From: Chloroflexia bacterium
GTDB lineage: Bacteria; Chloroflexota; Chloroflexia; QHBQ01; JADMIH01
Assembly: GCA_034667185.1 (NCBI GenBank)
Contig: JAXDKH010000365.1
Span: 1 to 33,834, forward strand
Reading direction: 5' to 3'
Length of the DNA: 33,834 nucleotides
Program-made: the position numbers and the translations under genes
Notes under the pieces: generated by a model
Database searches by the model: none
Told to the model about the DNA's origin: nothing
The model's input: the letters and a program-made list of their open reading frames with translations, nothing else
Shown here: positions 3,771-23,176 of the stretch, in pieces
Numbering within the stretch: the first letter of the stretch is position 1
How the letters are laid out: each line of letters begins with the position of its first letter

Positions 3771-4706
3771 CTACTGCTGTCCGCCCGGACCCTTCTCGAT
3801 AGGCGCACCCACCAGGTTGCCCCACTCGGTCCAACTGCCGTCGTAGTTGCGCACGTTGGGGTAGCCGAGCAGGTGCTTTAGCACAAACCAGGTGTGCGAC
3901 GAACGCTCGCCGATGCGGCAATAGGCGACAACGTCCTTGTCTGACGTTACGCCCTTGGGCTGGTAAATATTGCGTAGTTCCTCGGGGCTCTTGAAGGTGC
4001 CGTCCTCGCGTACCGCCGTGGCCCACGGCACGTTCTGAGCGCCGGGGATGTGCCCGCCTCGCTGCGCACCCTCCTGCGGGTAGTTCACCATGTGCAGCAT
4101 CTCGCCCGTATACTCCGGGTTCGAGCGCACGTCCACCAGGGCGTAGCCTTCCTTCAGGCTGTTGTTCTGGCGGTCCAGCAACGCCATGACCTCGTCGCGG
4201 AAGGCGCGGATCTCGCTATCGTTGCGCTCCTGGGCTGTGTAATCCGCCTGAGAGTGGCTTGGCACCTCGCGGGTCATGGGGCGGTTCTCGGCCACCCATA
4301 ACTGGCGGCCGCCGTTCATGATCTTGGTGTTTTTGTGCCCAAACAGGTGGAACACCCACAACGCGTATGTAGCCCACCAGTTGTTCTTGTCGCCGTAGAA
4401 CACCACCGTGGTGTCGTTGGAGATGCCGCGCTCCCGGCACAGCCTCTCAAAATCCTCCCGGCTGATGTAGTCGCGCCGCACTTTGTCGTTGAGGTCGGCT
4501 ACCCAGTCGAGCTTGACCGCGCCCGGTATGTGTCCCTGCTCGTACAGCAGCACGTCCTCGTCCGACTCCACGAGCCGCACGCTGGGATCGTCCAGGTGGT
4601 CTTCCACCCACTGCGTGGACACGAGTATATCGGGGTTGGCGTAGCCTGAGCCGTTCTGTGTGTCTGTGGCCTGCGCCGTGACTTCTGTTCCTGTACCTGT
4701 AGACAT
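3771..4706 (-). CDS. Tandem-domain rhodanese / thiosulfate or mercaptopyruvate sulfurtransferase (SseA/CysA-like)
   Basis: GHIPGA twice, active-site loop YCRIGERS, C-terminal YDGSWTEW signature. SD AGGAG upstream. Confidence 0.93.
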
Positions 4707-5013
4707 GGTTTGCTCCTTTTCTCCTGGAATTGTGACGATATTCTCTTTTGCTTATCTGCTATGCAACGAGTAACGCAGTCGCGTACATATTATACACTGT
4801 TTAGGCTGTTTTAATGTGCTAGGGGCATGTCAATCCAGTTTGCATGTAAACCAACTTCCTACTGCCGCTAACTAACTTCTAAGGAACTTCAGCGTTACAT
4901 AAAGCACACAGGTTTCGTTACATAGGGCGAACGACCTTTACCTACCAATAGGCACCAGGCACGCACCTCCCGGCGAGCCACTCATGCCGCGCAGGTATCT
5001 ATCTTCCATGAGG

Positions 5014-5115
5014 CATGACTAAAGTACCACCGCGGTAACCCTTTTTATTATTGCTTTTACGTCAACATGGTCGATATAATTGTTTTGCACAGTTGATTGT
5101 GAATAAAAACAATTA
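5014..5115 (+). promoter_or_regulatory. Putative sigma70 promoter for the HD-GYP sensor gene, with an upstream 6-4-6 box and an overlapping inverted repeat
   Basis: TTGCTT (5051)-18 bp-TATAAT (5075). CATGAC-taaa-GTACCA at 5014-5029. Inverted repeat TAATTGTTTT (5077) / AAAACAATTA (5106). Confidence 0.45.
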
Positions 5116-5389
5116 GATGAAGATGTTACAGGCGTACTGCGTTCTTGCTTCTTTCTACCATTTGGTCTCGTAGCCTGTGAACGACCCTGAGTCCCGCAAT
5201 ACGCTCGTTGCTTGTACCACTCGGATGCATATGGACCAACTCCGAAGGCACCTACAGCCTCAGAAACATGCGCTAGAGAACAACCTCGCACCGGCGGGCG
5301 GGGTGACCTGGCAGCGCATTGCTGTGCCTTCGAGCGAGCCCGTGTCCTACACGAGGCTGGCTCCGCTGAGTTCGTCGGGTGCGTTCAAC

Positions 5390-7954
5390 ATGACGGCCCC
5401 CGCGCTGGCCTATCGCCGCAACACGGGCAGTACGCTCCGCGAGCGCATGCGGTTGGTCCTGGTCCTGTCTGCCACCCTGCTCTACATCGTGCTCCTTTCG
5501 TACGTGCTCTCGCTCAGCAGCAGTTCGGCCAGGCCCTCGGTGGGCCTCACGGCGCAGCGCGACACCGCAGGTGCATGGCGGGTGACCTCGCTCGTACCGG
5601 GTGGCTTGAGCTACGACAGTGAAGTGCGCCTGGGCGATATGGTTGTGGCGGCTTACGATGCCACCGGCAACGCGCTGAACCTGGGTGCGCTGCCCGCCGG
5701 GTCGGACAATTTCTCTTCGGTCTATGAACTGGCGGTCCGTTCAGGGGGCGACCCGGAAGGCAGGTTGGTCCGGATCAGCACCGCCAACCAGCGTCCCGAC
5801 ACTGCACTCCAGCGGTGGGGCTATGCGGCGCTCGGCCTCATCTTCATAGCGGTAGGGGGCGCGGTGTTCGTCAAGGCCCGGCAGCGTGATGCCGCCAGGG
5901 CATTCTATCTCTTCTGCCTCACCACTGCGGTAGCCCTGGCCCTCGCTTCGGCCATGTACCTGCGCATAGATTGGCTGCAGTCAATGCTTTTCATCACGCT
6001 TGCGGCCTGGGCCGGCTCCTTTGCGATCTTCTTCTTCAAGTTCCCGGTGTGCGTCGGCAAATCCAAGCGAGACCATTACTTCCTCCTCGCGTCCGTGGCC
6101 CTGGGTGCCCTGTTCATCATCGCCGGTTACTTGTGGGTGCTGGCAGGGAATTACGGCGACTACGAGACGGTGAGGATGCTCACCTTGATCTACGTGAGCG
6201 CCTGCGTGGCTTCCGGCCTTGGTACGCTCCTTAGATCCTTGGTGGGCGAGCGCTCCCCCGAAGTCCGGCAGCAACTGTTCCTGTTGCTTGGTGGCACTGC
6301 CATCGCGGTTGGCCCCGCCCTGTTGCTGGACCTTCTTCCGCACATTCTCATAGACAGGGCCATTGTGAGCATAGACATGACGGTGCTCTCAATGGGTTTC
6401 CTGCCCCTGGCCTTTGCATACGCCATTACCCAGCACCAGTTGCTCGGCATACGCAGCCTGGTGCGGCGTAGCGTGGTCTACGTCATAATGGGCTTCAACG
6501 TGCTGGTGCTCTTCGCCGTGGCTGCCGCCGTAGTCAGCGCCCTCTTGCCGCAGGGTTGGTGGGGCAGCGAGTTTGGGCTGCTCGGCTTCGGCCTCTTTGT
6601 CTTCCTGATTGCCCTGTCGTTCGGTTGGGCGCAGCACCGCGTCGAACGCCTGGTGGACCGCTATATTTACCACGACGCTTACGACTACAAAGAGGCGCTG
6701 TTGCAGTTTAGCGCCCAACTTGCCTCCGAGCAGGACCTGAAGGTGCTTGCCGACCAGCTTGTGGAGCGCACCTGCCGCCTGATGAACCTCACCTGCGGCA
6801 TACTTTTGCTGTCCTCCCAGCCGCAAGAGGCCCCGCAGGCGGAAAGGCTGGCTTCTTCGTCCGGGCGCGACTTCCCCGACGCCGAGACAGAGTACGCCCA
6901 TGCGTTTACCTCCCGCGTAGGGACTGACATGGGTGGCAGAGACCGCACGCAGCCGCTGACGGAAGGCGACCTTTACCTGGAGTTGTATGCTAAGCACGGA
7001 GCCCTTGCCGAAACACTCTTAGAGGGATTGCGCGCCGAACTGTCCAGTCAAGGCATAGTGCTGCGCGAACTTGACAGCACCGCACAGATGGTATTCCTGG
7101 ACGGCGATTCGCAGATGGGCAAGCCCGAATTGCGAACGTCCTTCCTTGACGAAGACCCTTCAGACCTCGATACTGTGCGTTCTTTCCTGGGTGTGCCTCT
7201 GTGGACCCGTTCCTACTTCATAGGAGTGCTCTGCCTGGGCGGCAAGAAGACCGGCGAGCGCTTTACCCAGGACGACATCTCGCTTTTGAGCACGCTGGGC
7301 AGCCAGGCGGCCCTCGCCATCTATAACGCGCAACTGTACGAGGCCCGCGAGCAGGCACTGCTCGATACGATAACGGCCCTGGCTCACGCCATCGAGGCTA
7401 AAGACACCTACACGATCAACCACTGCGAGAACATCACCGACCGGGCGGTGGTGCTGGCCCAGGCGCTATCGCTACCGAGGCAGGACGTGGAGAACATCCG
7501 CCTTGGCTCGATACTGCACGACGTAGGCAAAATTGGCATACCCGACGCCATCCTCAATAAGCCCTCCAAGTTGACCGACGAGGAGTACGAGATCATCAAG
7601 CAGCACGCGCAGATCGGTGCGCGCATCGTGCAGTCGGTGGGGGCATTGCAGGGTGTCGTGCCTATCGTGCGGCACCACCAGGAGCGATTCGATGGCCGGG
7701 GCTATCCCGACGGGTTGGTGGGCGAGGCGATACCAGTGGGCGCGCGAATCATCGCGGTGGTAGATGCATATGGGGCTATGACCGAAGACCGCGTATACCG
7801 TAAGGCGCTGGGGCACGCGAAGGCGCTCGATGAGCTACGTCGCAACGCAGGCACCCAGTTCGACCCGCACGTAGTCAACACCTTCATCCGCATTCTGAAG
7901 GAGCAGCCTGAGCTTGCCGAAATCCACTTAGAAGACCTGGTAGGTTTGCATTAG
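5390..7954 (+). CDS. Membrane sensor: TM + PDZ-like extracellular domain + multi-TM region (ComP-like) + GAF + HD-GYP phosphodiesterase
   Basis: WRVTSLVPGGLSYDSEVRLGDMVV (PDZ-like), ~8-9 hydrophobic helices, GAF end GVLCLGGKKTGERFTQDDISLLSTLGSQAALAIYNAQLY, LHDVGKIG and HHQERFDGRGYP. The ORF is open from 5177; the true start is uncertain (5390 or 5447 plausible). Confidence 0.85.
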   Translation: MTAPALAYRRNTGSTLRERMRLVLVLSATLLYIVLLSYVLSLSSSSARPSVGLTAQRDTAGAWRVTSLVPGGLSYDSEVRLGDMVVAAYDATGNALNLGALPAGSDNFSSVYELAVRSGGDPEGRLVRISTANQRPDTALQRWGYAALGLIFIAVGGAVFVKARQRDAARAFYLFCLTTAVALALASAMYLRIDWLQSMLFITLAAWAGSFAIFFFKFPVCVGKSKRDHYFLLASVALGALFIIAGYLWVLAGNYGDYETVRMLTLIYVSACVASGLGTLLRSLVGERSPEVRQQLFLLLGGTAIAVGPALLLDLLPHILIDRAIVSIDMTVLSMGFLPLAFAYAITQHQLLGIRSLVRRSVVYVIMGFNVLVLFAVAAAVVSALLPQGWWGSEFGLLGFGLFVFLIALSFGWAQHRVERLVDRYIYHDAYDYKEALLQFSAQLASEQDLKVLADQLVERTCRLMNLTCGILLLSSQPQEAPQAERLASSSGRDFPDAETEYAHAFTSRVGTDMGGRDRTQPLTEGDLYLELYAKHGALAETLLEGLRAELSSQGIVLRELDSTAQMVFLDGDSQMGKPELRTSFLDEDPSDLDTVRSFLGVPLWTRSYFIGVLCLGGKKTGERFTQDDISLLSTLGSQAALAIYNAQLYEAREQALLDTITALAHAIEAKDTYTINHCENITDRAVVLAQALSLPRQDVENIRLGSILHDVGKIGIPDAILNKPSKLTDEEYEIIKQHAQIGARIVQSVGALQGVVPIVRHHQERFDGRGYPDGLVGEAIPVGARIIAVVDAYGAMTEDRVYRKALGHAKALDELRRNAGTQFDPHVVNTFIRILKEQPELAEIHLEDLVGLH

Positions 7955-7995
7955 TCAGTAACTGTTCTTCGGTCCAGCAGATATTACGTGAGGTC

Positions 7996-8030
7996 GCCCG
8001 GTAGGGGAAAGTCCTACCGGGCTTTTGCTT
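7996..8030 (+). terminator. Intrinsic terminator after the HD-GYP gene
   Basis: GCCCGGTAGGG-gaaag-TCCTACCGGGC followed by TTTTGCTT. Confidence 0.8.
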
Positions 8031-8124
8031 GCCTGGACTCGTCGCGCAGAGTCAAATGTCGCATGTGCACCGTACTTCATAAATGCGACTCTACGTAGAT
8101 TTACGTAAATCGTGGAATAGCGCC

Positions 8125-8217
8125 TAGTACTCTGGTCCTACCTATTGTATTGACATAGTACTTTTGGTATACTCACCCCGTCGGAGATGGCTAGTACTTG
8201 CTAGTACCAAAGTACCA
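8125..8217 (+). promoter_or_regulatory. Promoter of peptide gene 1 with three TAGTAC-N4-GTACTA-like boxes
   Basis: TTGTAT (8145)-17 bp-TATACT (8168) with extended TG. Boxes at 8125-8140, 8156-8171 and 8202-8217, plus an extra TAGTAC at 8192. Confidence 0.55.
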
Positions 8218-8399
8218 TGTTATATGGTGGGTATTCTGTACTGGTCGAGGTAAGGTGCTGCAGGGAACAGTCGGGGTTCAGTAGCACAAGAGGAGCACCG
8301 GGTAACTGCCCGGAAGTGCCTATGCAGGGGCACATATTGGCGTTGTAAGCAGGCCACGAACCAGGAGCCATCGTCACACCACGGAGGAGCATAGCAACC

Positions 8400-8615
8400 A
8401 TGAACCTGAATATCCTAGAAAAACTCACCCGCCACGCCATCAAGGGTAACAACGTAGTAGGCATTAGCAACGAGATGCTGAAGAAGGGCTTCCTCAGCCC
8501 CGCCGAGCATCGCTCGGTGCAGTCCCTCTCGTGGCAGATCGCCGCCAACCTCAACGCTACCACGGGTGGCGCGGTCGCTGCACCCCCCACTACCGTTTAC
8601 CGGGTGTGGATCTAA
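8400..8615 (+). CDS. 71-aa putative ComX-like pheromone/RiPP precursor 1 (C-terminal YRVWI)
   Basis: Strong SD GGAGGAG, own terminator, and 38/71 ungapped identity to the paralog at 8855 support coding status. Function is inferred from the penultimate Trp and the neighbouring genes. Confidence 0.8.
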   Translation: MNLNILEKLTRHAIKGNNVVGISNEMLKKGFLSPAEHRSVQSLSWQIAANLNATTGGAVAAPPTTVYRVWI

Positions 8616-8643
8616 GCCCTAGATTTAGAACTTTTCTTCTTCT

Positions 8644-8676
8644 GCAAAAAGACCGGCACTAAGCCGGTCTTTTTGC
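8644..8676. terminator. Bidirectional intrinsic terminator after peptide 1
   Basis: GCAAAAAGACCGGC-actaa-GCCGGTCTTTTTGC. Confidence 0.85.
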
Positions 8677-8854
8677 GTCCTCCGGTATGATATCGCGTCC
8701 CAGACAGCGCCCCCAGCCCCTGCATTTATCAACATTTGTCTACAAATTCGGGTTCTTTATGCCTGTAGCCCTTACTTTCCGCCGGAACTGTCGTTATACG
8801 AGGCATGCACGGGCTATGTCACTGTGGCACTCCCGAACAGGAGGTTATTAGCTG

Positions 8855-9070
8855 ATGAACCTGAACGTACTTGAGAAACTCGCACGTGAGATAATGAAGG
8901 GCAACGACGTCTCGCTAACGAGCCAGGCACTGTTGAACAGGGCAGTACTATCGCCCATCGAGCACCGGTCGCTGCAATCCCTCTCCTGGCAGATCGCCGC
9001 CAGCGCACGTCACACCCCCAGCGGCAACACCACAGTCGCTTCGATCAGCACCTACCGCGTCTGGATTTAG
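8855..9070 (+). CDS. 71-aa putative ComX-like pheromone/RiPP precursor 2 (C-terminal YRVWI)
   Basis: SD AGGAGG at ~8839. Paralog of 8400-8615 with conserved MNLNxLEKL, LSPxEHRSxQSLSWQIAA and YRVWI. Confidence 0.8.
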   Translation: MNLNVLEKLAREIMKGNDVSLTSQALLNRAVLSPIEHRSLQSLSWQIAASARHTPSGNTTVASISTYRVWI

Positions 9071-9156
9071 ACGACCCTGCCCGATTGTCCTCGCTCGCCC
9101 ATGTACCTGATACAGGAGAGAGCCGGGGCCTTACGTTTGTGACCATGAGCTTCCGT

Positions 9157-11583
9157 CTATCCCTGCCGTCCGTCGGCATCTTCGCTGAGTAGCGGTGCGC
9201 GCTTCAGCACGTTCTGCAAGTAGTAGCTGAGCACCAGGAACAGACCGCCTACCCCCAGGAAGATCAACACGCGCCAGATGGCCTCCAGGCCCACGAGGTC
9301 GATCAGGAACAGCTTGGCGACCAGCAGCACCAGGGTCCCGGCTCCCGCGTACAGCAGAGGTGCGTTGCGGTTGAACCTGATGCCGGCCAGAAGTAGCACG
9401 CACGCCCAGACTCCCCAGGCTATCGTCACGAAGGCGTTCCCGTTCGGTAGGGTCTCCAACTCGCGCCATAGTAAGGCGAGCAAGGCCAGGTGTGCCGCGC
9501 CTCTGTACAGCAGTTGTACCCCTCGTTCCTTGTGCAGGAAAGATACTCCGGCTACCAGGAGTATTACGGCCACGTCAACCAGGTTGGGGAGGTTGAAGAA
9601 TACCGGCCCCGGAGCTGCTCCGTAAAGCAGCCTGAGCATAAGCTGCAGGGCGACCAGGCCCAAAATGATGTGCGAGGGCACAACCGTCTCAGCACGGTTG
9701 GTCCGCCCCGGTGCCCACCAGTACACGGCCTGCAACAGGGTGCCGTAGACCGCCCACCCCAGAATGATGTAGCTCCACCCGTCGGGGCGACCTGCTAGCT
9801 CACGCCATATCGTGCCGAGCACGACTAGGTGTACCATGCCCCGGTATAGGACGCTGGTGCCCTGGGGCCGCACTACAAAGGAAGCCGCCAGGGACAGCCC
9901 CAATACTGTCAGGTAGGTGAGTGCTTGCGCATTCAGGAACGGGAGTTCGTCCAGCCTGGCGGTCCCGAATATCGGGCCTACTATATCTCGCCACAACTGA
10001 GAGACCACCCACAGGGCCACGCAGCCCGATAGTATGTGGCCCATGACCGATGTGCCCCTGTCCGAGAGCCTGCGAGCAACGAAGTGCAGGGCCGCTGCCT
10101 CCACCGCGAGCGCCAGCATCAGCACGTTGCCATGTATCAGTTGCACCAGCGCCAGTGTCAGCAACAGCACGCCCACAACCGCGTGGGTGTATGCCAGTCG
10201 TTCTTGGGAACGCCGCAAGCTCCAGGCGACGGCTCCGAACAGCACGGCCCCGGCCAGCGTCGCCGCACCCAACACCTCGCTCGGTACCGTGGCTTCCCAC
10301 AGCCTCCACGAGAAGCCAAGAGTGGTCAGCGGAGCCAGCACCACGAGCGCGTGCACCTGCGATTCCAGGAGGTTCCTGAGGTCCTTGTCGTGGACGTAGT
10401 CGAGCGACGACGAAGGCCACCGCTCCGGGTTGATTGCCCGCAATGTTTCGCGTACCAATGGCACTACCCAGAAGACCAGCAGGCAGAAGATTGCCCCGGC
10501 TTGCAAAGCCCAATCACCGTCAGGCCCTGCACCGAACCTCTTTGCGCCCTCAAGCCCTGCCAGCAGCACCAGCCAGGTGCCCACGAAGGTGGTCCACAGC
10601 AGGCCGCGCCAGCCTCGGAAGAAATAGACTGCAACAGCCCCGGCGGCCACCAGGCAGGTATAGGTAACCAGGCCCGTGACGCCGCCCGACCTGTCGCCCA
10701 GCACGAAGGGAGTTGCCAGCCCACCCGCTACGCCCACGATGGACAGCAGCGACTGGTTGTGTCCCAGAGCGAGCACGAAGGCCAGCACCGTCACCGCCAC
10801 CATAAAGGAGAATGCCAGCTCGTAGGCCACCAGGTGGAAGAGCTGGTAGGCCGCGTATCCCGTAATGTAGAAGGTGGCAATGCTCCCGCCCAGCAAGATG
10901 TACTTCAAAGCCTGACGGTGCGCACCCATCAGCGAGCCTATGACGAGCAACGCAGCCCCGGCCACGAAGCCCATCGCGACGCGCACCCACTCGGTGAGCC
11001 ACCCCTGGTCCACCGAGTACTTGAACAGGAAGCCGATGCCGAGCAGGAAGAGCACGATGCCGACGCGGCTGAGCCAGAACTCCCCGCTTTTGAGGATGTC
11101 GGGCGGCTTACGGGCAGTGGTGCTCGCGCTCGGGGCGCTGCTTTTTGGCCGGGCGTCCGTGGAGCTTACCCACGAGGCGGAAGAGCCATATACCTGAGAA
11201 GTCGCGGTATTGGATTCATTGAGACCCGGCAGGGGCATGTTGCCCAGCGCGGCTATGCTCTCTGGAACAGCTATTTGCCGACCCTGCCCGGACGGCTGCA
11301 TGGACCTGCCGCACCACATGCAATAGGGGTTAGTGGGTGGGTTGCCGCCCCGGCAGTGCGGGCAGAACACCTCTGTGGGAGGGGCCGGTGGTGCAGGTAT
11401 CAGGTTTGTGGTGGCAGGTACAGCCCGCCCAGCGACCTGTAGGTCCTCGGTTGGTGTAAGAGTGGCGGGCCGTATTGTGGCTACCGCCCCTTCGAGTCGC
11501 TCCACCTGGCCGCGCAACTCGCCTACCATCTGCTCTAGCCTGCCGATTCGTTCGTCCAGGGGCACACGTCCCGTCTCTTCCAT
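9157..11583 (-). CDS. DUF2339-family polytopic membrane protein with N-terminal coiled coil and zinc ribbon
   Basis: WLSRVGIVLFLLGIGFLFKYS..GWL and C-terminal KLFLIDL..LEAIWRVLIFLGVG are typical of DUF2339. CPHC..NP....YCMWCG zinc ribbon. SD AGGAGG. Confidence 0.85.
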   Translation of the reverse strand: MEETGRVPLDERIGRLEQMVGELRGQVERLEGAVATIRPATLTPTEDLQVAGRAVPATTNLIPAPPAPPTEVFCPHCRGGNPPTNPYCMWCGRSMQPSGQGRQIAVPESIAALGNMPLPGLNESNTATSQVYGSSASWVSSTDARPKSSAPSASTTARKPPDILKSGEFWLSRVGIVLFLLGIGFLFKYSVDQGWLTEWVRVAMGFVAGAALLVIGSLMGAHRQALKYILLGGSIATFYITGYAAYQLFHLVAYELAFSFMVAVTVLAFVLALGHNQSLLSIVGVAGGLATPFVLGDRSGGVTGLVTYTCLVAAGAVAVYFFRGWRGLLWTTFVGTWLVLLAGLEGAKRFGAGPDGDWALQAGAIFCLLVFWVVPLVRETLRAINPERWPSSSLDYVHDKDLRNLLESQVHALVVLAPLTTLGFSWRLWEATVPSEVLGAATLAGAVLFGAVAWSLRRSQERLAYTHAVVGVLLLTLALVQLIHGNVLMLALAVEAAALHFVARRLSDRGTSVMGHILSGCVALWVVSQLWRDIVGPIFGTARLDELPFLNAQALTYLTVLGLSLAASFVVRPQGTSVLYRGMVHLVVLGTIWRELAGRPDGWSYIILGWAVYGTLLQAVYWWAPGRTNRAETVVPSHIILGLVALQLMLRLLYGAAPGPVFFNLPNLVDVAVILLVAGVSFLHKERGVQLLYRGAAHLALLALLWRELETLPNGNAFVTIAWGVWACVLLLAGIRFNRNAPLLYAGAGTLVLLVAKLFLIDLVGLEAIWRVLIFLGVGGLFLVLSYYLQNVLKRAPLLSEDADGRQG

Positions 11584-11892
11584 CTGCGACTACCTCCTTG
11601 CAACACAGGCCCATTTCCTAAATAGACCCCATTCACCTGTTACCAGTATGCGGTTGTAATATGCCCGTTACATCGGCAGTCTTGCCTAACTACGGGCTAT
11701 GCCACTATGCAGGGTGCTGTCATGGAAGAGTAGGTATTATTGCTTAGATTAGGCAGGTAAAGACAGCGCACTATCTAGACAGCTACGAAAGCAGGCAGCA
11801 AAGCTCGACCTCTATATAGGCGCAACTCGGCACGTCATATAAATAGAACGCAGCCCACCACTTTGGCGCGATTCTACCCGCACTTCATAGCC

Positions 11893-11926
11893 CAGTCAAC
11901 AGTCAACTCGCCTCGGCTGGTATAAT
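11893..11926 (+). promoter_or_regulatory. Extended -10 promoter of the ComQ-like gene
   Basis: TGgTATAAT at 11918-11926. Direct repeat (AGTCAAC)x2 sits in the -35 position. Confidence 0.5.
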
Positions 11927-11994
11927 ACCCCGGCAAACTAAGCACCAACAAAACACTCGCCTATCGTCCATCGTCCCTCATCCGAGGTGAGCCC

Positions 11995-13092
11995 GTGAGT
12001 TCCGAGTCCGAAATCCGGCAGTTCCTCGAAGCCACCGAAGAGCACCTGACGGAGGCCCTGCTCGAATACGCCTCCATAATGCCGATGTCGCTCATCAACA
12101 TCGGCAAGCTGGCCCTCTCTGCGCCGGGCAAGGTGTTGAGCGCGGTGCCTCGGATGCAACAAGCGGGTGGCACCTTGCCTTCGCCCTTACCCAGGTGGCC
12201 CCTTTACGTGATAGAGGCGTACAGGGCAGGGGCGTCTTACCCGGAAGATACCTGGCGGGACGCGCTGCCTGGCGCGGTGGCTGTGGAGATCGCCATGTCC
12301 GCTGCCGACTTGCTGGACGAACTGACCGACGACGATCCCAGTCCGGTTGCCGAGCAGTACGGTCCCGGCCAGGCCCTCAACACCGCCAACCTGATGCTGG
12401 TCATGGCTCAACAAGTGTTGCTCAAAGCGGCGCAATCGAGCACCAAGGACCTCTATCTTGCTGCCCTCGCCGCGCTCCAGGAGATGCTGGTGGAGGCCGC
12501 CGTGGGCCAGCACCTCGATATGCTTTACGATGGGCTGCCACCTGGTGTAGTGACATTGGAGATGAGCGCGGACGTGACGGCGAAGAAGGCGGGCGCTCTA
12601 ATAGCGGGGGCGTGGCGTGTGGGGGCCGTGCTCTCAGGTGCGGAAGCGCCCGTGGTTGACCTGCTGACCCGCCTGGGCCGCGAGACGGGGGGCTTCGCCC
12701 AACTCTCAAACGACCTGGAAGCGGTGCTGCCTCTTGACATAAGTTCATCGGACGTGTCTCTCATGGATGAAGGTGGAACGCCTGGGCTCAAGACCGACCT
12801 GCGCCTGCGCAAGCGCACCATGCCCATCGTATTTACCCTGCGCGAGGAAGGTGAAGCGCCCAACCCCCTGCAACGGGCTTTCAGCGACCCCACCTACGCT
12901 GCGAGCGTGGACGAGGACACCCTGCGCCGGGCCATAGTTGAAGCGGGGGGCGTGCAGTTCGTGCAGCTGGTAATGGAAGTGCACGCACAGACTATCGTGC
13001 AACTGCTGGCCGAGCTTGAGACGCTCAGGCCGGGCGCTACCGAGGCCCTGGGTTACCTGTTGCCGGTGCAGGCTGCGGAGGTAGAAGACTAG
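11995..13092 (+). CDS. Isoprenyl-diphosphate-synthase-fold protein, ComQ-like (putative peptide tryptophan prenyltransferase)
   Basis: FARM-like AADLLDELTDDD without the following RRG, GQHLD, KKAGAL, pseudo-SARM QLSNDLEA, KTDLRLRKRTMPIVF. GTG start with SD GAGGTGA. Confidence 0.7.
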   Translation: MSSESEIRQFLEATEEHLTEALLEYASIMPMSLINIGKLALSAPGKVLSAVPRMQQAGGTLPSPLPRWPLYVIEAYRAGASYPEDTWRDALPGAVAVEIAMSAADLLDELTDDDPSPVAEQYGPGQALNTANLMLVMAQQVLLKAAQSSTKDLYLAALAALQEMLVEAAVGQHLDMLYDGLPPGVVTLEMSADVTAKKAGALIAGAWRVGAVLSGAEAPVVDLLTRLGRETGGFAQLSNDLEAVLPLDISSSDVSLMDEGGTPGLKTDLRLRKRTMPIVFTLREEGEAPNPLQRAFSDPTYAASVDEDTLRRAIVEAGGVQFVQLVMEVHAQTIVQLLAELETLRPGATEALGYLLPVQAAEVED

Positions 13093-15135: not shown

Positions 15136-15207
15136 GGGCCTGTGGCGCAGCGGTAGCGCAGGCGACTCATAATCGCTTGGTCGTAGGTTCGAATCCTACC
15201 GGGCCCA
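15136..15207 (+). tRNA. tRNA with CAT anticodon, most likely tRNA-Ile2 (lysidine type); CCA not encoded
   Basis: Acceptor stem GGGCCTG/CGGGCCC, anticodon arm GGCGA-CTCATAA-TCGCT (as in E. coli tRNA-Ile2, from memory), T-arm GTAGG-TTCGAAT-CCTAC. Confidence 0.9.
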
Positions 15208-15221
15208 CTGAGAAACATTCA

Positions 15222-15284
15222 AACGATGTACATAGCAAGAGGTTGGGATACTCTATCCCCCACTCCCTTGCTGTGTACATCGTT
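15222..15284. terminator. Long hairpin between the tRNA and the convergent endonuclease gene
   Basis: AACGATGTACATAGCAAG ... CTTGCTGTGTACATCGTT. Confidence 0.55.
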
Positions 15285-15308
15285 CTAGGTGGCTTAACTG
15301 GTGTTGAG

Positions 15309-16268
15309 TTATGTGTTGGCGTTTATTAGTTCCAAGAACATCGTATAGAAGCGCTTCCAGTCTGGACCGTCCTGCCCTACAACCTGAGAAAATTCGAAAA
15401 TTGCTGTTGATGTACGGGTCTCTGTCTCAAAAGTAGCACGGGGTAATCCGCCCATCTGAATAATAGTCCACCGATGTTGGTAACCTTCCTGCTGGGCCTT
15501 AATCTGTGACTTTTCTGCTTCGCCTGCGCGGTTATGCGCATTTGAGAAGTCGCTACCGCCCTTGATTTCGATAGCAATCAGTGGTTTAGACGATGAGCCA
15601 ACACCCTGGTTGAGCCTTATGTCCGGGTCACTACCAGCCACTAATTCATAAGGTTGGCCGTTTGGCAGCACAAACCTGAGTTGGGTGTCTTCCACCTCGA
15701 ATTCAATCCAATCCTCGTTAAGAAGTCTGCGTAGAACTCTAAAAGCCTGCAGGGCAGCCTCACGTCCAATAACAGTATTCCTCCGGCCTTGTAGAGTTGG
15801 CCCTAATGTCAGCAGAGCTAGGTCGCTCAAGTCCCTGTTGTCGAACTGGCCCATGGCTTCTACCAGCATTGTGAGAGGCTCGATTAGACGAGCGCAGAAC
15901 GCCTCCATTTGGGGCTTCAGCCGTGCTGATAACACTCCACTCTGCTCAGCCTTTGCCCATGCACCATAGCCATACTTGAGAGTGAAGTCCTTTGTGATTG
16001 AAAGACCAAGTAACATCCTATAGTAGCCAATCAATGGTGGAGAGTATTCTATTATTGCAGGTACCGGAAAGACACGTTCACCACGCAAGCCGAGTGCTGC
16101 TACATGACTTAACGTATCAGCAGGTACAAGACGGTCTAGCTCCTCATTTAAGCGCGCCACACCAACGGCGGACACTGCGGCACTGAGAGCAGGATGAAGT
16201 TGTAAGCGCCGGGCTTCAAGCAGCGACAGGTACAACCCAATACCTTTGTCTGCTGGTAAGGGTTTCAT
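15309..16268 (-). CDS. Type II restriction endonuclease, XcyI/XmaI/Cfr9I-like (predicted CCCGGG)
   Basis: GLRGERVFPVP, YYRMLLG, DLALLTLG, DPDI ... IAIEIKGG (PD-(D/E)xK), SNAHNRAGEAEKS. ATG 16268 lies 1 nt after the MTase stop. Confidence 0.8.
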   Translation of the reverse strand: MKPLPADKGIGLYLSLLEARRLQLHPALSAAVSAVGVARLNEELDRLVPADTLSHVAALGLRGERVFPVPAIIEYSPPLIGYYRMLLGLSITKDFTLKYGYGAWAKAEQSGVLSARLKPQMEAFCARLIEPLTMLVEAMGQFDNRDLSDLALLTLGPTLQGRRNTVIGREAALQAFRVLRRLLNEDWIEFEVEDTQLRFVLPNGQPYELVAGSDPDIRLNQGVGSSSKPLIAIEIKGGSDFSNAHNRAGEAEKSQIKAQQEGYQHRWTIIQMGGLPRATFETETRTSTAIFEFSQVVGQDGPDWKRFYTMFLELINANT

Positions 16269-16269
16269 G

Positions 16270-17289
16270 TTAGCTGATTGCAATTAACGGTTCATCCCCC
16301 GCCTGCCTGTTCACCTGTTGGTGCTCGATAAGTGGTTGTATTATTTCGGCTGCACTGACTACTTGTGCCTCCTCCACTACTTCAACCTCATAGATTGGGC
16401 GGTCTAGTCTTGCCAACTGCCGAATACGGTGGCGAGCTATTGCTGAGTATTCGGGGTTTATCTCTATGCCGAGAAATGGCCGTCCCAGTTCCACTGCAAC
16501 TACCGCAACCGTGCCGGAACCTAAGAATGGGTCCAATACGACATCCCCCGGCCTCGTGGATAGCTTCACACACGGTTCAACTAGCTTCGGAGGGAACGTA
16601 GCGAAATGCACATCCATAAGAGGGTAGGTGTTGATATCCCAGACCGAGCGTACGTTACGGTTATTTACTTCGCGCACCGCTTGGTTATCGTAGTAGTAAT
16701 TTTCGGACTTTGTAAGGAAAAACAGATATTCATGCGAACGGGTAGGTCGATCCTTTACGCTTTCCGGTTGCGCGTTTGGCTTACGCCATATTACGTCCGA
16801 CCTTAAATACCAACCTGCTTGCTGTAGAGCAAACGCCAGTCGCCAAGGGATTCCAGTAAGTTCTTTTGATTTTAAACCATTTGGTGTAGGTGGCCTGGTA
16901 CTCATAGCGCGGGCGCGGTTCTTCTTGTCGGGCGCACGCCACGTTCTACCGCCCGATGTGTAGCTATCACCAATATTCAGCCACATCGAGCCATCGGGCC
17001 GCAACACGCGGCGTACCTGCTCGAACACAGTAACTAACGCCATAATATAATCATCCACGTTTGGTTCTAGACCGATCTGTCCATCAATGGCGTAGTCACG
17101 TAACGACCAATAAGGTGGAGATGTAACAACTGCTTGGATACAGTTGGCTGGTAGATTTGCCAGTACCTTGAGGGCATCGCCGGTAACTACGCGCGAGTCG
17201 AAGACTTGGTCTCCACCAGGAGCAGTTTGAACGAGGGGCGGCGTAACAGAAGCATCAGACGAGACGTAATGCACAGTGTGGACTTGCAC
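16270..17289 (-). CDS. Beta-class amino DNA methyltransferase (likely N4-cytosine), cognate MTase
   Basis: TSPPYW (motif IV) precedes DPFLGSGT (motif I); IWRKPN..PESVKDRP, HFATFP. GTG start with SD GGAGG. Confidence 0.9.
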   Translation of the reverse strand: MQVHTVHYVSSDASVTPPLVQTAPGGDQVFDSRVVTGDALKVLANLPANCIQAVVTSPPYWSLRDYAIDGQIGLEPNVDDYIMALVTVFEQVRRVLRPDGSMWLNIGDSYTSGGRTWRAPDKKNRARAMSTRPPTPNGLKSKELTGIPWRLAFALQQAGWYLRSDVIWRKPNAQPESVKDRPTRSHEYLFFLTKSENYYYDNQAVREVNNRNVRSVWDINTYPLMDVHFATFPPKLVEPCVKLSTRPGDVVLDPFLGSGTVAVVAVELGRPFLGIEINPEYSAIARHRIRQLARLDRPIYEVEVVEEAQVVSAAEIIQPLIEHQQVNRQAGDEPLIAIS

Positions 17290-17398
17290 TCCAGTACCAA
17301 CCTCCCTGTTCTTGTAGATTGTAGGGTCTTCCTGTTTGAAGAGTATATCATTGCCTTAGAGGACCCGCAAACTTACACCCTTCGATGTCGTCTCTGGC

Positions 17399-17430
17399 GT
17401 AAATAGCTAAGATGGTAAATAGCTAAGATG
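17399..17430. repeat. 16-bp tandem duplication near the island end
   Basis: GTAAATAGCTAAGATG x2. Confidence 0.8.
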
Positions 17431-17503
17431 TATGTAGATATTTTCATAGGATAACAAAGAGAAACTCTGCAATTGCTGAGGAATGCGTATGAAACGTTAT
17501 CGA

Positions 17504-17578
17504 TAGCCTGTGGCGCAGCGGTAGCGCAGGCGACTCATAATCGCTTGGTCGTAGGTTCGAATCCTACCGGGTCCACCA
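17504..17578 (+). pseudogene. Second, nearly complete tRNA(CAT) copy (attR-like) with a damaged acceptor stem
   Basis: Starts TAGCCTG instead of GGGCCTG, so pairs 1-2 are mismatched. Ends CGGGTCCA-CCA. Confidence 0.7.
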
Positions 17579-17970: not shown

Positions 17971-20900
17971 GTGAAACGATTAATCATAGCTCTGTCGGCG
18001 CTTGTACTGGCGCTGATTGTGATGCGCGTGCAGGCAGGCGAGCCCATGAGCGCGAGTGGGGCCGCGGCACACACCAAGTCGGTCGTGCCTCAGATCCCGC
18101 AGCTTTTCCCCGAGGTGCGGCAGCCCGTCTACTTCGACGAATCTCCGCCCCTGCGCGACATAGTGCCCGTTCTAGAGCCCAACCCCAACGGGCCGACCTC
18201 CAGGCGCGAGGTGGAGCGCGAGAACGGTTTGAAGCCGAGCACCCATACACCCAACTTCGTGAGCATCGACCCGGTGGTGCAGACCTTCTTTGGCCCGCTT
18301 GCCATACCCACACCCATTATTACCTTCAAAGGCTACACCCAGCAGGACAACGCCTCCACCGGGCCCCTCATCAACTGGCCGCCCGATACCGAGGGAGACG
18401 TGGGCCTCAACCACTACTTCCAGTGGGATAATACGGGCTTCAAGATCTTCGACAAGGCCGGTAATCTCCTCTACGGCCCCGCCAACGGCAACTCTCTCTT
18501 TACCGGCATGACCGGTCCCGGTGGGGCTGAATGCGCGGGGACCGACAGTGGCGACCCGATTGTGCTCTATGACTCTATGGCCGACCGTTGGCTGGCGAGC
18601 CAGTTTACGACGGCCCCCGGTGCAGCGGCAGGCCCCACCTACGAGTGCATAGCCATCTCCAAGACCGGCGACCCGACCGGCCCCTACTGGCGCTACGCCT
18701 TCCAGGCAAGCCCAACCGCCTCCCCCAGTCGCTTCGAGGACTACCCACACTTCGGCGTGTGGCCCGACGCCTATTACATGACCACAAATGAGTTCGACGC
18801 CACGACCAATGGCATCGATCTTGTGGGGGCGGGCAATTTCGCTTTCGAGCGAGCAAAGATGATCGCGGGCGACCAGACCGCGAAGATGGTCTACTTCCAC
18901 CTGGACCCACCATACTCCGGCCTGCTTCCCTCCGACCTGGACGGCGCTACGCTTCCTCCGGTGGGCAGCCCCAACTACTTCGTGCAGGTTGATGACGATT
19001 TCGGCAATCCGCCCGCCGACCAGCTTTCCATCTTCAAGTTCCACGTCGATTGGACCACCGTCCTGAGTTCCACCTTTACCGGCCCCGTCACCACTCCGGT
19101 AGCGCCCTTCGACTCCGATTTCTGCGACGCCGATCGCGAAGCCTGCATCCCCCAGCCCGGCACAACCCAGAAGCTGGAGGTTATAAGCGACCGGCTGATG
19201 TACAGGCTGGCTTATCGCAACTTCAACGATCACGAGTCGCTGGTGGTGAACCACACGGTGGATGCCGACGGCACGGGGCACGCGGGCGTGCGCTGGTATG
19301 AGCTGCGCAGCCCTGGTACCTCACCCACTGTCTACCAGCAGGGCACCTTCGCTCCCGACGCGAGCGACCGCTGGATGGGCAGCGCCGCTATGGACAAGGA
19401 CGGCGATATAGCCCTGGGCTACAGCGTGTCGAACGCCACCGACGTCTTCCCTAGCATACGCTACACAGGGAGGCTGGCAGGTGACCCCCTGAACCAGATG
19501 AGCCTGGGTGAAGGTACGCTCTATCCCGGCTATGGGTCGCAGACCGCCAACGCGCGTTGGGGCGACTACAGCATGTTAGGCATCGACCCGTCGGACGACT
19601 GTAGCTTCTGGTATACGCAAGAGTACTACGGGACCACCGGCCAGTACTGGTCGACTCGCATTGGCAAGTTCAGGTTCGCAAGCTGCGGAGCCGACACGAT
19701 AGCCACCGAGACCCCTATACCTGCCCAGGACCCCTGCACCCTGCCCGGCGTCAAAGTGGTCACCGACGGCACGGGCGACGCCCTGGACACCCTGGGTGGT
19801 ACCGGCACCGAGCAGGCGCAAAAGTACGACATCGAGTATATCTCGGTGGCCGAACCCTACACAGCCACGGGACCCGATAACCTGGCGTTTACCATGAAGG
19901 TGACAAGCCTTGCCGGGCCTGAGAACGACCCCTCCACCAGCCCCAACACGACGTGGCGTATCTACTTCACCAGCCCTATGTCGGGCACTCTACGCTTCGT
20001 GGACATGCGCACTGACAACAGCGGCAACGTGACCTTTAAGTACGGCACCACCGTTGGCACCACTAACACGACGGTTGGCAATGCCGACGCGGGCGTGTAC
20101 GGCCTTGACGGCACGATCCGGATTATCGTTGCCACCTCCAAGCTGGGCGGTCTTACCCCGGGCCAGACTATCTCCGCCATCCATGGCAGGGTGATCTTCA
20201 CAACCTCCTCGCCCGGCGCTTCATACGATGTGGAGGACGCCAACTACCCTGAACCGGACAAGAGCGCCACGTACACGCTCGTGGGCAACGCCTCCTGCCA
20301 GGTGGTTGTGGGCGCTACCTCGACCGCCATACCCAGCAGCACGACCACGTCCACATCTACCTCTACGTCGCTTGCGAGCGCCACCTCCACCAGCATACCG
20401 GGCAGCACGTCAACCCCTACAGGTACGAATACGGGGACGGCTACTAGCGTTCCGGCGGGTACCTCCACGGGCACGGCCACCCGCACCGCCACCCGCACAC
20501 CCACTTCCATCAGCACGGGCACAGTGGCAGCGAGCAGCACCCCTAACGCCACAGCCACCGCCTGTACTATCCAGTTCGCTGACGTACCATCTTCGGGCGA
20601 GGGTTCTACCTTCTACGCGTTCGTGCGCTGCCTTGCTTGCCGGGGCATCGTGGGCGGCTACCCGTGCGGCGGTCCTGGAGAGGACTGCAACGACAACAAC
20701 CAACCGTACTACAGGCCGAGCGCTAACGTCACCCGCGGGCAGCTATCGAAGATAGTCGCCAACTCGGCGGGCTTGAATGACGACATAGCAGAAGGCCAGC
20801 AGCAGTTCGCCGACGTTGAACCGGGCGACCCCTTCTACCTCTACGTGGAGCGTCTAGCCCAGACCGGGGCCATATCGGGTTACCCCTGCGGCGGTACGGG

Positions 20901-21234
20901 TGAAGATTGTGACGACCTGGAGAGGCCGTACTTCCGCCCCAACAACCCCGCTACGAGAGGGCAAATATCTAAGATCGTGTCCATAGCGGCCGGCTTCGAT
21001 GAAGAGGTATCGGAGGACCAGCAGACGTTCACGGATGTGCCCACCGACAGCCCGTTCTGGGTGTACATCGAACGGCTGGCGAGCAGAGATGTGATCTCCG
21101 GCTACGGCGAGGCGGCGAAGTGCCCGACAGGTACTCCCTGCTTCCGCTACAACGATCTGACCACCAGGGGCCAGATGGCGAAGATCGCCTCCAACGCCTT
21201 CTTCCCAGGCTGCGAGACGCCTGTGAGGAGGTAA
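17971..21234 (+). CDS. Large secreted surface protein with Thr/Ser-rich linker and three Cys-containing SLH-like repeats
   Basis: Signal peptide, beta-rich body (PPDT.GDVG, GDPIVLYD, DYPHFG, RWGDYS), three F(A/T)DV...TRGQ repeats. GTG start with SD AGGAGG. Confidence 0.85.
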   Translation: MKRLIIALSALVLALIVMRVQAGEPMSASGAAAHTKSVVPQIPQLFPEVRQPVYFDESPPLRDIVPVLEPNPNGPTSRREVERENGLKPSTHTPNFVSIDPVVQTFFGPLAIPTPIITFKGYTQQDNASTGPLINWPPDTEGDVGLNHYFQWDNTGFKIFDKAGNLLYGPANGNSLFTGMTGPGGAECAGTDSGDPIVLYDSMADRWLASQFTTAPGAAAGPTYECIAISKTGDPTGPYWRYAFQASPTASPSRFEDYPHFGVWPDAYYMTTNEFDATTNGIDLVGAGNFAFERAKMIAGDQTAKMVYFHLDPPYSGLLPSDLDGATLPPVGSPNYFVQVDDDFGNPPADQLSIFKFHVDWTTVLSSTFTGPVTTPVAPFDSDFCDADREACIPQPGTTQKLEVISDRLMYRLAYRNFNDHESLVVNHTVDADGTGHAGVRWYELRSPGTSPTVYQQGTFAPDASDRWMGSAAMDKDGDIALGYSVSNATDVFPSIRYTGRLAGDPLNQMSLGEGTLYPGYGSQTANARWGDYSMLGIDPSDDCSFWYTQEYYGTTGQYWSTRIGKFRFASCGADTIATETPIPAQDPCTLPGVKVVTDGTGDALDTLGGTGTEQAQKYDIEYISVAEPYTATGPDNLAFTMKVTSLAGPENDPSTSPNTTWRIYFTSPMSGTLRFVDMRTDNSGNVTFKYGTTVGTTNTTVGNADAGVYGLDGTIRIIVATSKLGGLTPGQTISAIHGRVIFTTSSPGASYDVEDANYPEPDKSATYTLVGNASCQVVVGATSTAIPSSTTTSTSTSTSLASATSTSIPGSTSTPTGTNTGTATSVPAGTSTGTATRTATRTPTSISTGTVAASSTPNATATACTIQFADVPSSGEGSTFYAFVRCLACRGIVGGYPCGGPGEDCNDNNQPYYRPSANVTRGQLSKIVANSAGLNDDIAEGQQQFADVEPGDPFYLYVERLAQTGAISGYPCGGTGEDCDDLERPYFRPNNPATRGQISKIVSIAAGFDEEVSEDQQTFTDVPTDSPFWVYIERLASRDVISGYGEAAKCPTGTPCFRYNDLTTRGQMAKIASNAFFPGCETPVRR

Positions 21235-23106: not shown

Positions 23107-23176
23107 ACTCGCGGTGAGGCATCTCCTTATGCTTTGCCGGGTTGTCTTGTGCGCTATGTGCTGGCGGGGAGTGGCG

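Follow-up and report, generated by a model that had tools for sequence, protein, structure and literature searches.

A candidate prenylated-peptide signalling locus in a Chloroflexia genome, with an HD-GYP sensor in the place of a kinase

Background

Can a ribosomally made, prenylated peptide be read by a membrane protein that itself turns over cyclic di-GMP (c-di-GMP)? The question is raised by a contig of 33,834 nucleotides (nt) from an uncultured Chloroflexia bacterium (JAXDKH010000365.1 of assembly GCA_034667185.1, here contig C365 and hereafter the window), which belongs to a 4.3-Mb genome held in 468 contigs and 81% complete. Five genes lie between 5.1 and 13.1 kb of the window, encoding a multi-domain membrane sensor, two small precursor peptides, a DUF2339 membrane protein and an enzyme with the fold of the isoprenyl diphosphate synthases (IPPS; Table 1). 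Peptide quorum sensing of the Gram-positive type runs via histidine kinases or cytoplasmic RRNPP receptors, and, among quorum signals, those of the fatty-acid type are known to be linked to c-di-GMP. We propose, with a probability of about 0.6, that the locus is a peptide-pheromone module of the StheQX/ComQX/PalQX kind whose sensor sets the c-di-GMP level directly, without a kinase or response regulator.

In the mechanism we have in mind, the two 71-residue precursors, each with a conserved leader and a hypervariable core ending in Trp-X, would be bound through the leader by the enzyme, as StheQ and PalQ bind full-length precursors, and a prenyl group, probably farnesyl or geranyl, would be transferred to Trp70. 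The leader would be removed and a short lipidated C-terminal peptide would exit the cell, where the sensor would read it from outside via its PDZ-like domain and/or its multi-transmembrane (multi-TM) bundle; the signal would then pass via the GAF linker to the HD-GYP domain and alter the rate of c-di-GMP hydrolysis. Prenylation, processing, export, the binding of peptide to sensor, the sign of the response and the nucleotide hydrolysed are what we infer here. The genome contains 15 GGDEF and 9 HD_5 (HD-GYP) places, so a changed hydrolysis rate would feed an existing c-di-GMP network. DNA of this genome is present in two soil-metagenome runs among those listed, with no RNA run among them.

Two precursor peptides with a penultimate tryptophan

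The two peptides are 54% identical (E 1e-26), both are 71 amino acids (aa) long and end in YRVWI, and each gene is preceded by a ribosome-binding site of the GGAGG type. Compared with the orthologues of genomes G007 and G009 they show dN/dS values of 0.13–0.20, and both are therefore coding genes under purifying selection, in agreement with an initial annotation of the window that had described two paralogous 71-aa peptides with a penultimate Trp. A search with a single window peptide matched 21 of the 24 other genomes of the genus at E ≤ 1e-3 and gave nothing convincing in 16 genomes of other genera (best E 0.024); more distant relatives were reached via the enzyme profile and then a joint peptide profile. 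The peptides of the genus share a conserved leader (MNLNxLEKLARQ...P.EHRSL.SLSWQIAAN) followed by a hypervariable tail ending in Trp-X (27/28 in the genus list with four peptides of the unpublished genomes G022 and G023, 23/24 without those four), and many of the cores come after a Gly-rich stretch (ANxxAxGxG).

In a joint alignment of 35 peptides across families, only the first Met and the Trp columns are invariant, and the Trp is penultimate in 34 of the 35 rows. This alignment leaves out the peptide of G003, which has no Trp, and those of L112 (end IWF), L115 (end FWY), L037 (end AWG) and L038 (end RWF), together with the four peptides of G022 and G023. The exceptional row is L119 (G209, 9042–9257, minus strand), in which 12 residues (…GTDWMISPPRTEAVQ) instead of one follow the Trp; possible explanations of this extension are a follower sequence, read-through and an error in sequencing. 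When the peptide profile was run against 1.84 billion cluster representatives, only 65 proteins matched at E ≤ 1e-3. Sixty-two of these are short, and among them the Trp is penultimate in 55 and within the last three residues in 57, which is far beyond chance. The peptide family is thus small, and the penultimate Trp is its hallmark.

A prenyltransferase candidate of the StheQ branch

The enzyme matches the Pfam family PF00348 (polyprenyl_synt) at 52.1 bits (cut-off 27, E 6.8e-14), and a profile search of the PDB with it returned 75 IPPS chains (best E 8.5e-21) and Ord1 at E 9e-5. The place of the first aspartate-rich motif (FARM) is taken by DELTDDD (residues 108–114, positions 12316–12336) and that of the second (SARM) by NDLEA (Q236, N239-D240...A243, positions 12700–12723), and no RRG follows the first acidic motif in any of the 17 orthologues aligned. 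The proposal of an IPPS-fold enzyme with degenerate motifs thus holds. Residues D105, D108, D112, D114, Q236, N239 and D240 and the stretches GQHLD, K198-A-G and KTD...KRT are invariant in the 17 orthologues, and E109 nearly so.

A point of comparison is provided by StheQ of Sphaerobacter thermophilus, for which crystal structures have been solved and which, according to the main text of an August 2026 preprint (10.64898/2026.08.29.745113), farnesylates the penultimate Trp of its precursor StheX, the second residue from the C-terminus. The residues named there are D85, E86, D89 and D91 in the FARM, K174, Q212, N215, D216 and D219 of the pseudo-SARM, A167 and T267, and the mutants N215D, D216A and D219A lost 98%, 96% and 83% of activity, respectively (10.64898/2026.08.29.745113). 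A protein of genome G114 carries all 11 of these residues at the same numbers and is termed StheQ-like here; the adjoining peptide is 69 aa long, with Trp at positions 67 and 68, and the leader of the window peptide aligns with those of such StheX-like peptides. The window enzyme is 29% identical to this StheQ-like protein and retains eight of the 11 named residues, seven of them catalytic or donor-binding by the roles given in the preprint (10.64898/2026.08.29.745113): its D108, E109, D112 and D114 correspond to StheQ D85, E86, D89 and D91, and its K198, Q236, N239 and D240 to K174, Q212, N215 and D216. It has Ala243 for D219 and Ser191 for A167, and most of the genus has Asp at the equivalent of position 243. 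On these residues we assign the window enzyme to the StheQ branch of the IPPS-fold peptide prenyltransferases, with one weakened position, and by analogy with StheQ it would prenylate Trp70.

A sensor with a PDZ-like domain and an HD-GYP output

The sensor consists, in order, of a disordered N-terminus, a TM helix, a PDZ-like domain, a multi-TM bundle, a GAF domain and an HD-GYP domain. Pfam identifies HisKA_7TM (PF16927, residues 221–425, 31.7 bits), GAF (521–715) and HD_5 (735–899, 134.8 bits), and an AlphaFold2 (AF2) model built on 34 aligned relatives, with a mean predicted local distance difference test score (pLDDT) of 75, comprises a disordered segment (1–81), a long TM helix (76–115), a beta domain (124–201), a TM bundle (210–500), GAF and HD-GYP. 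The true start may lie further in, for example at codon 43; the Atlas entry of the sensor begins at residue 43. The N-terminal module is single-copy in its own genome, and 76 sensor clusters were found. Proteins that resemble the PDZ-7TM arrangement also occur in Acidobacteriota. With the PDZ and HD-GYP folds recovered by AF2 and Foldseek as described below, the predicted make-up of PDZ-like, multi-TM, GAF and HD-GYP parts was borne out. The initial annotation was also right that the window lacks a kinase and a response regulator: a Pfam scan of 25 open reading frames (ORFs) of the window returned no HisKA, HATPase_c or Response_reg domain, and neither the kinase receptor nor the ComA-type regulator of a ComQXPA locus is among them.

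Basic residues precede the first TM helix (TM1) and come after the second (TM2), and by the positive-inside rule the PDZ-like domain is therefore predicted to lie outside the cytoplasm, between TM1 and TM2, with the N-terminus inside. Modelled alone by AF2 from 24 aligned sequences, this region reached a pLDDT of 86, and all listed Foldseek matches of the model in the PDB are PDZ domains of Ctp/Prc, HtrA, DegS and DegP (best match 6bxg, E 0.013, TM-score 0.60; TM-scores up to 0.61 among the listed matches). Pfam PDZ_6 matches 16 of the 34 aligned sensors (best E 2.6e-7). PDZ domains of Ctp/Prc and HtrA/DegS read free protein C-termini. The domain is thus an attractive candidate for the reader, both because the invariant feature of the putative signal is its C-terminal Trp-X-COOH and because the PDZ domains nearest to it in fold are those of free C-terminus readers.

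The same structural matches bear on a different role, in which the PDZ-like domain would serve maturation or export by keeping the precursor at the membrane through its C-terminus until the leader is cut off or the peptide released, while the HD-GYP domain would report precursor load from inside. The closest PDZ folds do come from C-terminal processing proteases (6bxg, 5wql, 9ku3), and Pfam scans of the window found no dedicated protease or exporter in the locus; however, the sensor has no protease or transporter domain of its own (Pfam), the PDZ-like domain is placed outside the cytoplasm by its flanking charges, and the sister architectures described below are ordinary sensor kinases, so we regard a maturation role as very unlikely.

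The HD-GYP domain has H781-D782 and the motif HHQERFDGRGYP, with GYP at residues 842–844; the canonical motif is HHExxDGxGYP. Its Foldseek matches include the HD-GYP c-di-GMP phosphodiesterase 4mcw (E 1.8e-13), the c-di-GMP-bound DvhD 9rbz (E 8e-10) and PA4781 (4r8z, E 5e-9), the cGAMP-specific relative 5z7c being a weaker match (E 3.7e-5), and we infer that the domain hydrolyses c-di-GMP. Within the genus, mean pairwise identity is 30% for the PDZ, 43% for the GAF, 51% for the TM and 76% for the HD-GYP part, making the PDZ the most variable of the folded domains of the sensor. A fast-evolving PDZ beside hypervariable peptide cores is the pattern expected of pherotypes.

Gene linkage within the genus

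We mapped the window proteins onto 20 loci around peptide matches in 19 genomes of the genus. In 18 of the 20, the peptide and enzyme genes neighbour each other on one strand; the other two are a weak second copy that stands alone in G012 and a locus cut off by the end of its contig 114 nt past the peptide. In the window itself the pair is parted by one inserted gene, that of the DUF2339 protein, an insertion found only here and in the window's closest relatives, L023 (G007) and L029 (G009); the 808-aa DUF2339 protein has an N-terminal coiled coil and a zinc-ribbon-like CxxC pair. A sensor gene borders the peptide gene, in the same orientation, at 13 of the 20 loci; twelve of these run sensor, peptide(s), enzyme, and in the remaining one (L042) the contig stops before any enzyme gene. 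L117 is likewise arranged sensor-peptide-enzyme. In five genus loci the neighbours of the peptide and enzyme pair are unrelated (NAPRTase, RecJ, proline racemase, glycosidases and others). The pair is inseparable, with the sensor usually, but not always, next to it.

Two further lines were dropped. Co-absence was not used as evidence, since the genomes without peptide and enzyme are 63–66% complete (G014, G017) or have the sensor on a 2.2-kb contig (G020). In L027 (G003, 6608–11204) the sensor and enzyme are each in three frame-shifted pieces and the peptide has no Trp; joint decay of this system was set aside because G003 is in 20 contigs and 71% complete, and the frame breaks may be indel errors of a long-read assembly. 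The unpublished genomes G017, G022, G023 and G032 are counted in the peptide search, the peptide list, the enzyme search of the class and the co-absence tally, and no conclusion depends on them alone.

Gene linkage outside the genus

Across 400 genomes of the class, the enzyme profile scored about 555 bits within the genus (21 of 25 genomes) and 91–127 bits in 25 genomes of other families, and the loci of all 25 non-genus matches were fetched. Twelve of these are lone ordinary IPPS genes with neither peptide nor sensor, and the PDZ-TM sensor is next to none of the 12. In the other 13, a gene for a 63–77-aa peptide with the family leader lies just upstream of the enzyme, and in 12 of the 13 the gene directly downstream of the enzyme is a homologue of the PDZ-TM module of the window sensor (23–29% identity, E 1e-17 to 1e-38); in the 13th, the contig extends just 41 nt beyond the enzyme. 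One more locus, in G660, was reached with the peptide profile in 400 genomes across the phylum; its contig has the peptide, the enzyme and, at its end, the beginning of a PDZ-TM protein. There are thus 14 peptide and enzyme loci outside the genus, with a sensor homologue beyond the enzyme in 13 of the 13 that have DNA visible there. In L106, L107, L108, L110 and L111 the enzyme stop and the sensor start overlap or lie 0–3 nt apart. The order in these loci is peptide-enzyme-sensor, against sensor-peptide-enzyme in the genus. A search of genome contigs with the enzyme alignment reached only the same genus and ordinary IPPS genes of Anaerolineae. The sensor gene that lies beyond the enzyme in L115 (G145) and L116 (G163) is broken into two ORFs that overlap, which reflects either a frameshift or an assembly error.

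Conservation of the three parts beyond this genome, which the initial annotation had named as a point to check by synteny across Chloroflexota, was therefore found both in the genus (13/20 loci) and outside it (13/13 visible loci). These data also bear on the simplest alternative for the enzyme, an ordinary chain-elongating polyprenyl diphosphate synthase beside unrelated small ORFs, with a neighbourhood that is merely synteny by descent. Such an enzyme would agree with the database labels, as most orthologues are called geranylgeranyl diphosphate (GGPP) synthase or polyprenyl synthetase (the JGI pipeline names just 4 of 120 listed orthologues 'competence protein ComQ', and more than 120 enzyme clusters were found), and shared gene order is expected among related genomes of one genus. 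Yet the SARM place reads NDxxx and RRG is missing after the FARM, as in StheQ/ComQ; the enzyme is 29% identical to a protein with every StheQ-named residue at the same number; the peptide and enzyme pair moves jointly into unrelated contexts; the triad persists at 25–30% protein identity despite a different gene order; and the ordinary IPPS loci (12/12) have neither companion. We find the ordinary-synthase explanation scarcely credible.

Different outputs on a shared sensor module

While HD-GYP alone is the Pfam output of the PDZ-TM module in the window's genus, other outputs occur on homologous modules elsewhere. The sensors of L106, L107, L108, L110, L111, L112 and L114 (about 1000–1125 aa) have the architecture [PDZ]-TM-GAF-HD-GYP-GAF-GGDEF. 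The GGDEF motif is intact in all six checked, with an RxxD site five residues upstream in four, and an intact GGDEF occurs together with an HHExxDGxGYP motif in L106, L107, L110 and L111. The HD-GYP/GGDEF sensors of L106, L107, L108, L110, L111 and L112, of about 1110 aa, are possible bifunctional c-di-GMP switches. A third architecture, [PDZ]-TM-GAF-HisKA_3-HATPase_c, is found in L113, L119 and L126, and in L126 a Response_reg+GerE regulator comes after the kinase. The L126 locus (G226, 4611–8750) encodes on one strand a 63–77-aa peptide ending in VAWS, an IPPS-like enzyme, a TM-GAF-HATPase_c kinase and the Response_reg+GerE protein, the predicted products making up a complete ComQXPA-like parts list in a Chloroflexia genome.

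A quick-method tree of the PDZ+TM module common to these sensors (24 rows, unrooted) groups the HD-GYP-only sensors with a support of 98 and the HD-GYP-GGDEF sensors with one of 100, and puts the kinase rows on long branches; on this tree two changes of output would suffice. As the membrane and PDZ part is constant and the cytoplasmic output varies, the simplest reading is that the constant PDZ-TM module perceives the product of the two companion genes. This swap of modules is our main argument that the sensor would read a prenylated peptide and, in the window, set c-di-GMP turnover directly, in line with the earlier suggestion that the pheromone directly controls second-messenger turnover. 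Three more HisKA_7TM proteins are encoded on contigs C163, C460 and C424 of the window's own genome (G000), one of them fused to HD-GYP (879-aa frame) and one to GGDEF (746-aa frame), and multi-TM sensors feeding c-di-GMP enzymes thus appear to be a recurrent design in the organism.

Linkage and outputs together also allow us to weigh the most serious rival to a pheromone, namely a prenylated peptide made on the ribosome and modified after translation (RiPP) that serves some other purpose, for instance as an antimicrobial, a surfactant or a membrane-active lipopeptide. The sensor would then be a co-located regulator of something else, for example envelope stress perceived through exposed protein C-termini in the way of DegS-type PDZ domains, that controls or responds to production. 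The leaders of StheX-like relatives fall just below the cut-off of the NHLP-clan model NF038399 (37–38 bits against 40), as in many non-signal RiPPs, and the window peptide itself has no match to NHLP-clan leader models at E ≤ 5. This rival would likewise suit the nearest PDZ structures, those of Ctp/Prc and HtrA/DegS being general readers of C-termini, and the five genus loci in which the sensor lies apart from peptide and enzyme. Against this, the sensor directly follows the enzyme in every visible non-genus locus (13/13, often with overlapping codons) and in no ordinary IPPS locus (0/12), the kinase-type loci repeat the layout of ComQXPA and PalPXQ, in which the kinase is the pheromone receptor, and no bacteriocin-type immunity or transporter genes were found in the flanks scanned. 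We consider a RiPP of this sort unlikely.

Arguments against a pheromone receptor

Several observations weigh against a pheromone module with a c-di-GMP enzyme as its receptor. With regard to the sensor, the window protein itself has no Pfam PDZ match at E ≤ 1, the Foldseek E-values of its PDZ model are weak (0.013), and its second HD-GYP motif contains, genus-wide, one extra residue (HHQE...) compared with relatives such as HHEWYDGSGYP. Homology of the sensor to ComP was not found with Pfam, as PF16927, which matches the sensor, has no match in the B. subtilis control genome. In the enzyme, Ala243 may weaken activity. With regard to the locus, the enzyme is split from the peptides by the inverted DUF2339 gene and the sensor appears to have its own terminator, and sensor, peptides and enzyme therefore do not look like one operon in this organism; the terminator-like hairpin suggests that the peptide genes are transcribed on their own. 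The absence of a protease or exporter gene among the scanned window ORFs, mentioned above, belongs here also. Among the 20 genus loci, five have no sensor within the fetched flank; four of these genomes encode an intact sensor orthologue at another place, and a search of the fifth, G021 (85% complete), found none. Furthermore, all loci come from one phylum and nearly all from one class, so that the relatives compared are not independent.

A test of co-evolution is to be counted on the same side. In Mantel and partial Mantel tests of the peptide core against the sensor domains in 15 genomes, the partial Mantel r with the core was 0.19 for the PDZ, 0.30 for the TM part and 0.33 for the cytoplasmic GAF. 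As all sensor domains track core similarity, the cytoplasmic GAF included, we discarded co-evolution of core and PDZ as evidence. A co-folding run of sensor residues 76–520 with the 71-aa precursor scored 0.00 and gave no evidence either way.

A bolder version of the pheromone proposal would make the sensor a c-di-GMP enzyme that acts as the receptor of a peptide pheromone, the first such case known. The PDZ-like domain of the sensor would read the prenylated C-terminus in the manner of DegS and switch the HD-GYP domain (the HD-GYP/GGDEF pair in the sisters), this reader would have swapped kinase and c-di-GMP outputs within one class, and the cores and PDZ domains would form pherotypes as ComX and ComP do. 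We put this forward tentatively, as a possibility that we would not expect to hold in every part.

Comparison with known systems

StheQ and StheX of S. thermophilus, from the same phylum, resemble the window's enzyme and peptides in the IPPS fold, a FARM of the form DExxDxD and a pseudo-SARM beginning with ND, and in having, next to the enzyme gene, a precursor of about 70 aa with a penultimate Trp, the residue that is prenylated in StheX (10.64898/2026.08.29.745113). The StheQ-like loci we examined differ in being ordered peptide-enzyme-sensor, where the window has sensor-peptide-enzyme, and their adjacent sensor also bears GAF-GGDEF, where that of the window ends in HD-GYP. The words receptor, HD-GYP, phosphodiesterase and kinase each have 0 occurrences in the main text of the preprint, a count that does not extend to its supplementary gene-cluster figure (10.64898/2026.08.29.745113).

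The ComQXPA system of Bacillus similarly combines an IPPS-fold enzyme, a small precursor with a variable core and a Trp near the C-terminus, and a multi-TM sensor alongside. It differs in relaying the signal through a kinase and response regulator, where the output in the window is HD-GYP; the window sensor, unlike ComQXPA, has a PDZ domain and a bundle of the HisKA_7TM type, and the window peptides, unlike ComQXPA, have their Trp strictly in the penultimate position. Identity between StheQ and ComQ is only 19% (10.64898/2026.08.29.745113). PalPXQ of Paenibacillus alvei shares with the window the order sensor-precursor-prenyltransferase, a conserved leader, a conserved Trp at the C-terminal end and a prenyltransferase of the IPPS superfamily that binds the precursor; it differs in that PalP is a histidine kinase and that the Trp of PalX, an NHLP-type precursor, is the very last residue, and PalQ forms a sequence cluster of its own (PMC10853753). 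The initial description of a ComQ/ComX/ComP-like set can accordingly be kept in part: homology and linkage support a ComQX-type candidate, whereas the nearest characterised relatives are StheQ/StheX and PalPXQ rather than Bacillus ComQX, and the sensor is ComP-like by functional analogy only.

Outside the peptide systems, the closest parallels are found in the Rpf and DegS proteins. RpfC/RpfG conveys the diffusible signal factor (DSF) to an HD-GYP regulator by phosphorelay, and RpfR is a PAS-GGDEF-EAL protein that binds BDSF, receptor and enzyme being one protein. Here too a diffusible cell-to-cell signal sets c-di-GMP turnover, as we propose for the window; the differences are that the Rpf signals are fatty acids and that RpfG needs a kinase. 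We know of no Rpf system that uses a ribosomal prenylated peptide or a PDZ plus multi-TM sensor. DegS is a protease whose extracytoplasmic PDZ domain is switched by tails of outer-membrane proteins ending in aromatic or hydrophobic residues, and its PDZ structures 6ew9 and 3gdu are among the Foldseek matches of the sensor PDZ; unlike in DegS, the PDZ in the window belongs to a multi-TM enzyme predicted to act on c-di-GMP, for which we propose a lipidated pheromone as ligand.

The claim that no system of this form had been described needs to be divided. The prenylation chemistry is in the August 2026 preprint (10.64898/2026.08.29.745113), and Trp prenylation is thus already known from ComQ, PalQ and StheQ; on the other hand, no published prenylated-peptide locus with an HD-GYP or HD-GYP/GGDEF partner sensor was found in the literature searched, and the predicted partnership with such a sensor is what would be new.

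Features of the window

The four genes on which the proposal depends (sensor, two peptides and enzyme), as first annotated, were all confirmed by the ORF and Pfam scans at the positions in Table 1. Upstream of peptide 1 lies a non-coding stretch of 445 nt with lower GC (7955–8399), in which no Rfam match and, by a sigma-70 scan, no promoter-like site was found; an Rfam scan of the whole window gave two tRNA matches only.

Table 1. Coordinates of the predicted genes, sensor domains, hairpins and other features in the window.
Feature	Position	Strand	Basis
Sensor gene, 925-aa ORF from first GTG	5177..7954	+	ORF; Pfam, AF2 model
Sensor, first TM helix, residues 76-115, basic stretch YRRNTGSTLRERMR ahead	5402..5521	+	AF2 model
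Sensor, PDZ-like beta domain, residues ~120-205	5534..5791	+	AF2, Foldseek, Pfam of relatives
Sensor, multi-TM bundle of HisKA_7TM type, residues ~210-500	5804..6676	+	Pfam PF16927, AF2 model
Sensor, GAF domain, residues ~504-695, low-confidence insertions	6686..7261	+	Pfam GAF, GAF_2, GAF_3; AF2 model
Sensor, HD-GYP domain, residues ~698-910	7268..7906	+	Pfam HD_5, motifs, Foldseek
Terminator-like hairpin and T-run directly 3' of sensor gene	7996..8022	+	Consensus scan only
Precursor peptide 1, 71 aa, end YRVWI, Trp70 codon 8607-8609	8400..8615	+	ORF, alignment, dN/dS
Hairpin GACCGGC...GCCGGTC then TTTTT, 3' of peptide 1	8641..8671	+	Read from sequence; absent from the consensus scan's list
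Precursor peptide 2, 71 aa, end YRVWI, Trp70 codon 9062-9064	8855..9070	+	ORF, alignment, dN/dS
DUF2339 membrane-protein gene, 808 aa	9157..11583	-	Pfam
Candidate IPPS-fold peptide prenyltransferase of StheQ/ComQ type, 365 aa	11995..13092	+	Pfam, alignment
tRNA	15136-15207		Rfam
XcyI-type restriction endonuclease	15309-16283	-	Pfam
N4/N6 DNA methylase	16270-17289	-	Pfam
Second tRNA match, slightly truncated	17507-17571		Rfam

Beyond the locus, the stretch 15136–17571 is low in GC (51% against about 61%) and, with its endonuclease, methylase and flanking tRNA matches, looks like a small restriction-modification island at a tRNA gene. The gene at 17971–21234 (plus strand) encodes a 1087-aa protein with an S-layer homology domain near its C-terminus, relatives of which adjoin the sensor in L034, L035 and L038. 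From 23078 to 33076 (plus strand) a same-strand run encodes a 3-beta-HSD/epimerase, a metallo-beta-lactamase-fold protein, a protein of 455 aa without assignment, a GT28/UDPGT-like glycosyltransferase, KAS III, a short-chain dehydrogenase, an alpha/beta hydrolase and two GT21-type glycosyltransferases, which looks like a cluster for glycolipid synthesis or lipid modification.

Conclusions

If our proposal is correct, a single membrane protein that reads a Trp-prenylated ribosomal peptide and directly degrades c-di-GMP would bring two major fields of signalling together, and in relatives the same sensor also carries a domain that makes c-di-GMP. It would provide a concrete receptor candidate for StheQ/StheX, Sphaerobacter being a cultured thermophile with solved enzyme structures, and the exchange of kinase, HD-GYP and HD-GYP-GGDEF outputs on one reader would constitute a natural experiment on the coupling of sensor to output. 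Chloroflexia that carry these genes are common in soil metagenomes, and peptide signalling is almost unexplored in this group.

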